Shown here: positions 58,558-58,833 of the stretch, one piece after another
Numbering within the stretch: the first letter of the stretch is position 1
How the letters are laid out: each line of letters opens with the position of its first letter
Origin: Mycoplasmatota bacterium
GTDB lineage: Bacteria > Bacillota_I > Bacilli_A > Acholeplasmatales > Acholeplasmataceae
Reading direction: 5' to 3'
Length of the DNA stretch: 64,000 nucleotides
NCBI GenBank assembly: GCA_024650045.1
Contig: JANKMU010000004.1
Location: 78,379 to 142,378, forward strand
Translations under genes and position numbers: made by a program
Notes under the pieces: generated by a model
Database searches by the model: none
The model's input: only the letters and a program-made list of their open reading frames with translations
Told to the model about the DNA's origin: nothing

Positions 58558-58669
58558 TACCCAAAATAAAAAAAGTTTTTTTCTTGTTTTAATATTTGAT
58601 TCTTGTCTTTTTAAATTTTATATGATACCATATCTACAAACAAGAAATTGTATTTATTAGGTGATTTTA

Positions 58670-58714
58670 ATGTTAAATATGAAGAAAGCTGTTTACTATT
58701 ACGGATATTGTTAG
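58670..58714 (+). CDS. Tyr-rich leader peptide ORF (MLNMKKAVYYYGYC) of the aro operon
   Basis: ATG 58670 is preceded by AGGTGA at a 5-nt spacing. The ORF has 14 codons, and 4 of the last 6 are Tyr. TAG 58712..58714 abuts the first leader hairpin. Confidence 0.55.
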   Translation: MLNMKKAVYYYGYC

Positions 58715-58757
58715 AAAAGGGATTGCAAGGCATTCCTTTTTAAGCGATTAAAGGAAC
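58715..58757 (+). promoter_or_regulatory. Attenuator alternative-pairing segments 1, 2 and 3
   Basis: Segment 1 (58715..58726) pairs with segment 2 (58730..58741): 10 WC pairs, 1 GU, 1 mismatch. Segment 3 AAAGGAAC (58750..58757) can pair with TTCCTTT of segment 2 or with GTTCCT (58789..58794) inside the terminator. Confidence 0.45.
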
Positions 58758-58779
58758 AGCCAACACATGACAAACGTTC

Positions 58780-58814
58780 ATCCTTGGGGTTCCTCAAGGA
58801 TTTTTTTATTTTTT
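58780..58814 (+). terminator. Intrinsic terminator in the aro leader (attenuator terminator)
   Basis: Stem ATCCTTGGG/CC(T)CAAGGAT followed by T7-A-T6, ending 19 nt before the aroF ATG. Confidence 0.7.
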
Positions 58815-58833
58815 AAACCAAAGGAGAAAAATT

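Follow-up and report, generated by a model that had tools for sequence, protein, structure and literature searches.

We have analysed a stretch of 64,000 nucleotides (nt; hereafter the window) from a Mariniplasma-like Mycoplasmatota bacterium of the Acholeplasmataceae (assembly GCA_024650045.1, contig JANKMU010000004.1, positions 78,379 to 142,378) and have concentrated on the leader that precedes aroF, the first gene of an operon that serves aromatic amino acid biosynthesis. Comparison with related leaders suggests that it is in all probability a ribosome-mediated transcription attenuator of the trp/his/phe type, which reads the supply of tyrosyl-tRNA by way of a short, Tyr-rich open reading frame (ORF). 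The leader itself is not new. It is almost certainly a member of the candidate attenuator motif uORFC-13-1 (Brewer et al. 2021, RNA Biol 18:2417; PMC8632094), an identity that follows from the published description and not from the seed alignment. What is new is the assignment to Tyr, together with a broader taxonomic range and a structural model that is spelled out explicitly. The elements of the leader are as follows (positions are those of the window).

58659..58664, + strand: Shine-Dalgarno sequence (SD) AGGTGA of the leader ORF, 5 nt ahead of the ATG at 58670
58670..58714, + strand: leader ORF of 14 codons plus TAG (58712-14), peptide MLNMKKAVYYYGYC (window sequence and relatives)
58694..58708, + strand: putative regulatory Tyr codons TAC TAT TAC (GGA) TAT (Tyr enrichment and codon conservation)
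58688..58694, + strand: segment 0, GCUGUUU, predicted 5' strand of helix H0 (minimum free energy (MFE) fold of the window, pair counts, swap test)
58715..58741, + strand: hairpin P1, with segment 1 (58715-26), loop AAG and segment 2 (58730-41) (folding, conservation)
58750..58763, + strand: segment 3, AAAGGAACAGCCAA, predicted hub with three alternative partners, segment 0, segment 2 and the terminator (pair counts, swap test)
58784..58793, + strand: predicted 3' strand of the antiterminator (AT), UUGG-G-GUUCC, pairing with 58753-57 and 58760-63
58780..58814, + strand: intrinsic terminator with stem 58780-88 / 58793-58801, loop 58789-92 and then U6-A-U6 (scan, folding, covariation)

The leader reading frame and its tyrosine codons

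A protein search with AroF yielded 80 loci in species-representative genomes of the Acholeplasmatales and Izemoplasmatales. The closest relatives (81-87% identity) are Mariniplasma/Acholeplasmataceae metagenome-assembled genomes, and the more distant ones belong to Acholeplasma, Paracholeplasma, Liberiplasma and the Izemoplasmatales. At these loci we found 53 distinct upstream regions that share the layout of SD, ORF, P1 and terminator, and the invariant stem of P1 spans relatives in which AroF is only about 60% identical. The leader is present in Paracholeplasma vituli (L045) and at the locus encoding the AroF of Acholeplasma morum (L201, leader MLSIRRSISYYYYYLD). The arrangement was not found at the loci of the Anaeroplasmataceae and of rumen Acholeplasmatales.

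The first-pass annotation of the window, made from the sequence alone, had described an SD AGGTGA at a spacing of 5 nt, an ORF of 14 codons and a cluster of Tyr codons, and all of these are present where it had placed them. The Tyr triplet TAC TAT TAC occupies 58694-58702 and the fourth Tyr codon, TAT, lies at 58706-08; together they make up 4 of the final 6 codons. Among the intergenic short ORFs in the 64 kb that are preceded by an SD, only the aroF leader holds a run of three identical residues. The annotation had further proposed an alignment with relatives as a check, and this revealed that the ORF with its Tyr run is conserved in all 53 leader-bearing regions. An SD-like motif is found in every one of them (AGGTG in 42, GGTG in 4, AAGG in 7), the start codon is ATG in 51 and GTG in 2, and the ORF ranges from 11 to 16 codons, the peptide being variable outside the Tyr run. 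The number of Tyr residues per peptide varies between 2 and 6, with a run of at least three in 46 of the 53, and Tyr constitutes 31% of the leader residues versus about 5% in eight proteins of the window. Phe is missing from 25 of the 53 leaders and Trp from 51.

The pattern of substitution within the run is informative as well. In the alignment the first and second positions of the three core Tyr codons are conserved at 89-98% and the third position is a mixture of T and C, a pattern characteristic of selection on the codon and not on the nucleotides. Moreover, the first Tyr codon and the core of P1 stay 22-28 nt apart in the 53 leaders, even though the stop codon shifts between -1 and 6 nt from that core. 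These features bear directly on the view that the element is a constitutive damping terminator or the gene of a small RNA, with the Tyr-rich ORF as a by-product of AT-rich sequence. TAT is indeed a common triplet in AT-rich DNA, and the full-length MFE structure always contains the terminator. Such a view would nevertheless not lead one to expect a conserved ORF, synonymous variation in the Tyr run, a fixed spacing and co-varying helices throughout 53 leaders, and the other two frames of the same stretch are interrupted by stops in 35 and 26 of the 53. We therefore regard it as very unlikely.

A second alternative concerns the amino acid that is read. In the proposal made for uORFC-13-1, the terminator is governed by how fast phenylalanine is incorporated at a U-run (PMC8632094), and the same attenuator could thus sense Phe instead of Tyr. 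The published suggestion builds on a U-run that encodes at least one Phe (PMC8632094), and in L044-L048, of the Acholeplasma/Paracholeplasma group, an in-frame Phe does stand right before the Tyr run (...RFSYYYYYI / ...SFSYYYYY). In addition, the F-Y-F leader aroR of Corynebacterium glutamicum is reported, in the account that PMC11802643 gives of it, to answer limitation of Phe and not of Tyr. Yet where Phe does occur among the 53 leaders it is mostly codon 2, too far upstream, and Tyr runs are near-universal; the leader of the Acholeplasma morum type (...RSISYYYYYLD) has no Phe at all. A predicted role as the 5' strand of H0, paired with AAUAGGAAAU, accounts for the U-run, AUUUCCUAUU, seen in the Acholeplasma group. 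The content of the operon is in line with Tyr. In the relative of the Acholeplasma morum type it reads aroF-tyrA-aroB-aroA-chorismate mutase-aroE-aroC and ends at aroC, and this full operon holds the enzyme of the Tyr branch and lacks a prephenate dehydratase, which fits Tyr as the signal. The choice of Tyr in the first-pass annotation thus gains support from the near-universal Tyr runs, from their T/C variation at the third position and from the place of tyrA as second gene of the operon, and sensing of Phe appears very unlikely.

Some further occurrences deserve mention. Of the matches listed by a metagenome scan with the P1 pattern, 119 were due to chance and one was genuine: L140 (contig Ga0209319_1000004, near position 463) carries the leader MFTLIMAGYYYYYYIS, and its aroF, of 83% identity, begins 122 nt downstream of the first position of P1. 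An Anaeroplasmataceae locus (L078, 2700-3003) has no P1 motif, but does have a near-perfect promoter TTGACA-17-TGnTATAAT, an SD, an ORF of 30 codons ending in ...IHIYYGYCRFN and a number of hairpins, and a terminator, AGGACAAG...CTTGTCCTTTT, lies immediately ahead of aroF. This may be a Tyr leader that arose independently or has diverged strongly. The AroF of A. laidlawii is not among the 120 AroF homologues listed.

Hairpin P1, competing helices and ribosome position

The helices were assessed by counting pairs for each of them on the MAFFT alignment A1, every helix being compared with slid controls. Considering that MAFFT misaligns the distant members, an alignment-free swap test was added, in which the duplex energies of cognate and non-cognate segments were compared for 45 representatives.

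P1 consists of 11 pairs (one of them G.U) and one U.U mismatch (U23.U33), abuts the stop codon and is followed by a U-run of its own. The hairpin of 12 positions that had been predicted next to the TAG, between 58715..58726 and 58730..58741, is thereby confirmed; its energy is -10.6 kcal/mol (z -3.8), and none of 200 shuffles folds equally well. P1 is paired at 89.9% in A1 as compared to at most 58% in the slid controls. Its core GGAnUG...CAnnCC is invariant among the relatives, the loop measures 3-12 nt, and in the 53 leaders the hairpin starts -1 to 6 nt past the stop codon. In 0.52 Mb of loci the motif was seen solely at aroF leaders, and the window has a single copy. The base opposite the mismatch covaries with segment 3 and not with segment 1 (e.g. 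in L040), which accounts for the conservation of the mismatch. Two other roles for P1 were considered and rejected: a DNA operator is ruled out by the spacing of the arms, which varies from 3 to 12 nt, and a terminator is ruled out on logic, as it would turn the operon off upon starvation. With its flanking A-run and U-run (58715-58741) the element is almost symmetric, and either strand can be read as a hairpin followed by a T-run. Read in the sense direction, it looks like a hairpin-dependent pause site, and a possible role of this kind would suit the synchronisation of RNA polymerase with the leading ribosome.

Three further helices, H0, H23 and the AT, are predicted to share segment 3. H0 joins 58688-94 to 58754-60 (within AGGAACAGC, 58752-60), encloses P1 and is present in the MFE structure of the window; segment 0, its 5' strand, comprises the codons that immediately precede the first Tyr codon and reaches into the latter. 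In the Acholeplasma group the strands of H0 are replaced by AUUUCCUAUU/AAUAGGAAAU. H23 joins 58733-39 to 58750-56 and 58730-31 to 58759-60 (-10.1 kcal/mol). For the antiterminator, the first-pass annotation had proposed that AAAGGAAC (58750-57) can pair with TTCCTTT in segment 2 (58733-39) or, by an AGGAAC/GTTCCT helix, with GTTCCT (58789-94) in the terminator. The pairing of segment 3 with the terminator holds, although the extent does not: the predicted helix is longer, an interrupted one of 9 bp that connects 58753-57 to 58789-93 and 58760-63 to 58784-87 around a 2x1 internal loop. It has an energy of -12.2 kcal/mol and extends over the upper 5' arm of the terminator, too.

The comparative data support the helices in the following way. 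In A1, H0 is paired at 71.8% (slid controls at most 57.6%), H23 at 89.6% (at most 65.5%) and the AT at 84.5% (at most 68%); for the AT, 6 pairs have changed on both sides and none of 500 shuffles matches the percentage. In the swap test the cognate combinations were the more stable for H0 (-8.6 vs -6.9 kcal/mol), H23 (-11.7 vs -10.2), the AT (-11.5 vs -9.9) and the terminator (-14.0 vs -10.3), in each case with p=2e-4, and no cognate advantage was seen for the invariant P1, for segment 1:4 or for two control combinations. An alternative antiterminator, in which AAGGAU of segment 1 would pair with AUCCUU of the terminator, was rejected (p=0.59). The exchange of the AT strands can also be seen directly, with GGAAC-AG-CCAA / UUGG-G-GUUCC in the window, GGAA(A)UGU-A-CUAA / UUAG-G-ACAUUCC in the Acholeplasma group and GGAG..CCCA / UGGG..CUCC in L040. 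Three predicted pairings that exclude one another are thus supported, in addition to the terminator, by the pair counts and the swap test. The alternative pairings, moreover, are far from energetically negligible, a point raised earlier as a possible weakness: P1 (-10.6), H23 (-10.1), AT (-12.2) and the terminator (-11.5 kcal/mol) are near-isoenergetic.

The terminator comprises 9 pairs and a loop of 4 nt, and its U-run ends 19 nt ahead of the ATG of aroF. Both the site and this distance had been given correctly before; the 3' arm, however, runs from 58793 to 58801 and does not begin at 58792, and the tail that had been read as T7-A-T6 is T6-A-T6, unless the last T of the stem is counted. No other terminator-like site occurs in 58000-59200, for which the expected number is 0.3 +/- 0.6. 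The terminator is paired at 92.6% in A1 (at most 78.7% when slid), with covariation above that of all 500 shuffles, and each of the 53 leaders possesses a terminator, of between -10 and -19 kcal/mol and followed by a T-run, 52-74 nt past the stop codon.

Control by a T-box or of the TRAP type would be usual for aromatic genes in Bacillota, and a T-box does occur beside an aro leader: in the Izemoplasmatales locus L049 a T-box (1249-1467, 110.8 bits) precedes a trpB-like gene (1575-2756) directly upstream of the Tyr leader and aroF, so that both types of control adjoin in one genome. Beyond this and the phylogenetic expectation nothing speaks for such control in the window, and the direct scans of the leader were negative. 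The T-box family (RF00230) gave no match up to E 10 in 58480-58900 and none at the gathering score in 10 loci, and no copy of the T-box 14-mer with at most 5 mismatches occurs in the window leader. Leaders bound by TRAP carry 9-11 (G/U)AG triplets, 2-3 nt apart, and only 3 GAG/UAG triplets are present in 58630-58833, none of them chained at the TRAP spacing. More generally, no Rfam family was found for the leader, either at the gathering score in the whole window and 10 relatives or with E up to 10 on 58480-58900; the best match, preQ1-II, reached 22 bits against a cut-off of 47 and was set aside as chance. These negative results are meaningful because the same scan detects the genuine T-box in L049. 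We consider T-box or TRAP control of the leader refuted for practical purposes.

The near-invariance of P1 could also be taken to mean that a trans-acting protein or small ligand reads the hairpin and selects between antiterminator and terminator, with the ORF as auxiliary or incidental. The stem GGAnUGC...GCAnnCC is invariant and its mismatch conserved, which is more than a plain helix needs. The overlapping pairing can explain that invariance, however, as segment 2 must also fit segment 3. A model based on protein only requires neither the ORF nor the SD, the Tyr run and the spacing, all of which are kept at the level of codons. Furthermore, no known RNA family matches and no regulator is co-conserved, a divergent PadR gene being present only in the closest relatives. 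A reader of this kind in place of the ribosome thus seems unlikely, and we give about the same small weight to a two-input device, in which the invariant P1 would additionally be bound by a protein, tRNA or metabolite that reports on, e.g., the supply of Phe or Trp. If true, the latter would explain how a Tyr-only peptide can gate an operon for all three aromatic amino acids.

For the tyrosine-reading attenuator we infer translation of the leader ORF, stalling on it, the footprint of the ribosome, the order of folding and the response to tyrosine, and the scheme would then run as follows. Transcription would start from a promoter that precedes the SD by about 30 nt and would yield a leader RNA of roughly 170 nt with five competing segments: segment 0, segments 1 and 2 (P1), segment 3, segment 4 (the terminator's upper 5' arm together with its loop) and segment 5 (the terminator's 3' arm). 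Without a ribosome, segment 0 would pair with segment 3 around P1, the terminator would fold and the operon would be off. With a ribosome waiting at YYY for Tyr-tRNA, segment 0 would be covered and P1, 22-28 nt downstream, would stay folded; the free segment 3 could then pair with segment 4 as soon as this is made, the terminator could not nucleate, and RNA polymerase would read into aroF-tyrA-aroB-aroA-chorismate mutase-aroE(-aroC). A ribosome that has reached the stop codon would cover segment 1 and leave segment 2 to pair with segment 3; segment 4 would then be free, allowing the terminator to form and shutting the operon off again. The logic that had been put forward for the window, in which an intact 1:2 hairpin with a free segment 3 allows read-through and 2:3 pairing leads to termination, hence finds comparative support in the 53 relatives.

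We modelled the effect of ribosome position by masking, with a ribosome on the first Tyr codon leaving the RNA free from 58707 and one at the stop codon leaving it free from 58725. In the window, stalling on the first Tyr codon gives P1 plus AT as the MFE structure up to 58795 (-26.4 kcal/mol). Once the 3' arm is made, the full-length form with the terminator is better by only 0.6 kcal/mol, and because the gain is this small, P1 and AT should persist when formed first. With the ribosome at the stop codon, H23 plus terminator (-21.6) beats the AT alone (-14.0) by 7.6 kcal/mol. In the untranslated leader H0 and P1 sequester segment 3 and the terminator folds; the model thus predicts that H0 would bring about termination when the leader is not translated. 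Over the family, the median probability of the antiterminator, P(AT), is 0.73 for a stall at the first Tyr codon, 0.56 at the last, 0.39 at the stop codon and 0.23 for untranslated RNA, and stalling lowers the energy advantage of the terminator by about 3 kcal/mol. The P(AT) values were obtained with an AT-specific metric. A first metric, which scored pairing of the 5' arm of the terminator with anything upstream, was flat across the states because this arm can also pair with the region of the leader SD, and it was replaced.

A number of observations weigh against the proposed attenuator. P(AT) falls by more than 0.2 from stall to stop in only 28 of the 53 leaders, and the difference between the two states is at least 2 kcal/mol in 31, equilibrium modelling thus giving the switch only partly. 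When the assumed footprint is lengthened to +15, the median contrast is reduced to -1.3 kcal/mol and the direction is reversed in 13 leaders; the leaders of the Izemoplasmatales hardly change between ribosome states. The folding with segment 1 masked that had been suggested as a check therefore bears out the direction of the change, its size and consistency being partial and dependent on the footprint. In the window, at the stop codon and before the 3' arm of the terminator exists, the AT is more stable than H23. As the AT is preferred until that arm has been made, the model relies on strand displacement and on the order in which the RNA is made. P1, being nearly invariant, shows no compensatory change and has no support from covariation, and the permutation and shuffle statistics ignore phylogeny. 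Finally, it is odd in physiological terms that an operon which also feeds Phe and Trp should be gated by Tyr alone, unless there is basal read-through or other control.

Operon and upstream region

The promoter candidate and the genes in the window that follow the leader are listed below.

58603..58608, + strand: probable -35 box TTGTCT (conserved TTGT(C/T/A)T in relatives, 17 nt before the -10)
58623..58631, + strand: probable extended -10, with TG at 58623-24, n, and TACCAT at 58626-31 (alignment conservation)
58821..58826, + strand: SD AAGGAG of aroF (window; conserved in alignment A1)
58834-59853, + strand: aroF (NF006421, 493 bits)
59850-60680, + strand: tyrA, second gene of the operon (NCBIfam match above or near cut-off)
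60667-61680, + strand: aroB (NCBIfam match above or near cut-off)
61677-62936, + strand: aroA (NCBIfam match above or near cut-off)
62926-63180, + strand: chorismate mutase (NCBIfam match above or near cut-off)
63177-63965, + strand: aroE (NCBIfam match above or near cut-off)

The gene list given earlier for the operon is correct from aroF through aroE; the aroC that it also contained falls outside, as the window ends at 64000, just after aroE (63965). Exact-protein look-ups of the AroE and AroA of the window returned no record. The AroF of the window is of the PRK08673 type, and an N-terminal ferredoxin-like domain, DAHP_snth_FXD (PF18152), was found in its homologues. This domain mediates allosteric feedback in related enzymes. 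By analogy of domain type, the aromatic pathway is probably also controlled at the level of the enzyme.

The promoter originally suggested, TTGATT-19-TATGAT, is not conserved in the relatives and gives way to TTGTCT-17-TG-n-TACCAT, which is. The latter is weak by consensus and lies under the threshold of a consensus promoter scan. Nevertheless, in the alignment of the relatives T(G/A)TGATAC(C/T/G)AT is the best-conserved block upstream of the leader ORF. From the conserved promoter, transcription would be expected to begin near 58638-40 and the terminated leader to measure roughly 170 nt. A 13-nt insertion, AATTGTATTTATT, at about 58647-58659 between the conserved CAAACAAGA block and the SD, is unique to the window leader among its relatives. 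Further upstream, between padR and the aro promoter, two TGTG-N5-CACA palindromes are present, TGTGTTTTGCACA and TGTGCAAAACACA, at 58511-58523 and 58545-58557. They are mutually inverted, with 33-34 nt between their starts, and more than 30 relatives conserve them along with the divergent PadR-family gene (58175-58498, minus strand). Probably they are PadR operators for autoregulation.

Relation to known leaders

The first-pass annotation had taken aromatic operons in Firmicutes and Mollicutes to be usually controlled by T-boxes or TRAP and not by leader peptides; the novelty that this implies falls with the publication of uORFC-13-1 in 2021 (PMC8632094). That motif emerged from a screen of the A. 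laidlawii genome, has 24 representatives and occurs exclusively upstream of aroF, in Acholeplasma and environmental sequences only. The description includes possible -35 and -10 boxes, a ribosome binding site, a start codon, a short ORF, an adjacent intrinsic terminator and further base-paired substructure (PMC8632094). The window leader agrees with this description throughout, in the position before aroF, the occurrence in the Acholeplasma range, the possible promoter boxes, the ribosome binding site with start codon and short ORF, the adjoining terminator and the further pairing. It differs in that it points, like its relatives, to Tyr where PMC8632094 names Phe, and in that PMC8632094 has neither an antiterminator nor a three-state model. 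The sample differs as well, with 53 distinct leaders here against 24, adding genomes of the Mariniplasma-like type, of Liberiplasma and of the Izemoplasmatales. The motif uORFC-13-1 is not in Rfam 15, and we found no further mention of it in the later literature.

If the reading of tyrosine is true, the amino acid assigned to uORFC-13-1 is corrected, the motif extends to Mariniplasma-like Acholeplasmataceae, Liberiplasma and Izemoplasmatales, and a testable three-state structural model with defined base pairs becomes available. For the annotation of these genomes the gain is a regulatory ORF, thus far unannotated, and a premature terminator ahead of the aro operon. The leader opens up no new kind of biology.

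The general design is that of the trpL, pheL, hisL, thrL, leuL and ilv attenuators of E. coli, where tandem codons for the end product lie in a short ORF that is combined with alternative hairpins and a terminator (PMC9413887). The clustered codons, the overlapping hairpins, the terminator before the first gene and the predicted termination when untranslated are common to both. Relative to trp, the window leader has one more layer of helices and is in this respect closer to his. It differs from the E. coli attenuators in its Tyr signal and in the predicted position of the stalled ribosome, which would sit upstream of the intact first hairpin and not inside it. There is no sequence relationship with them, nor did the leader match any leader family in Rfam.

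Two aromatic systems provide precedents. The aroR leader before aroF of C. glutamicum contains a Phe-Tyr-Phe triplet and is reported to be responsive to Phe and not to Tyr (Neshat et al. 2014, as related in PMC11802643 and PMC4046766). As far as these accounts describe it, aroR is likewise a leader-peptide attenuator with aromatic regulatory codons ahead of the gene for 3-deoxy-D-arabino-heptulosonate 7-phosphate (DAHP) synthase, and it differs in being actinobacterial and an unrelated RNA. Attenuation by Tyr-tRNA was hypothesised for aroF-tyrA of E. coli (Camakaris et al. 1980) and predicted in Shewanella, according to the account in PMC2659441. This hypothesis for the gamma-proteobacterial aroF(-tyrA) also ties expression to tyrosyl-tRNA, but concerns a different 5' untranslated region and, as far as that account goes, was never established. 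The aroF gene of E. coli is controlled mainly by TyrR. We know of no tyrosine-specific leader-peptide attenuator that has been demonstrated experimentally.

Within the Bacillota, leader-peptide attenuation is to our knowledge rare and T-boxes dominate. The latter are the usual sensors of tRNA charging in this group (PMC1262725). The T-box leaders for Tyr and Trp likewise sense the charging of tRNA and choose between an antiterminator and a terminator. The window leader, in contrast, has no Stem I, no specifier loop and no T-box sequence, and sensing would take place via the translating ribosome.

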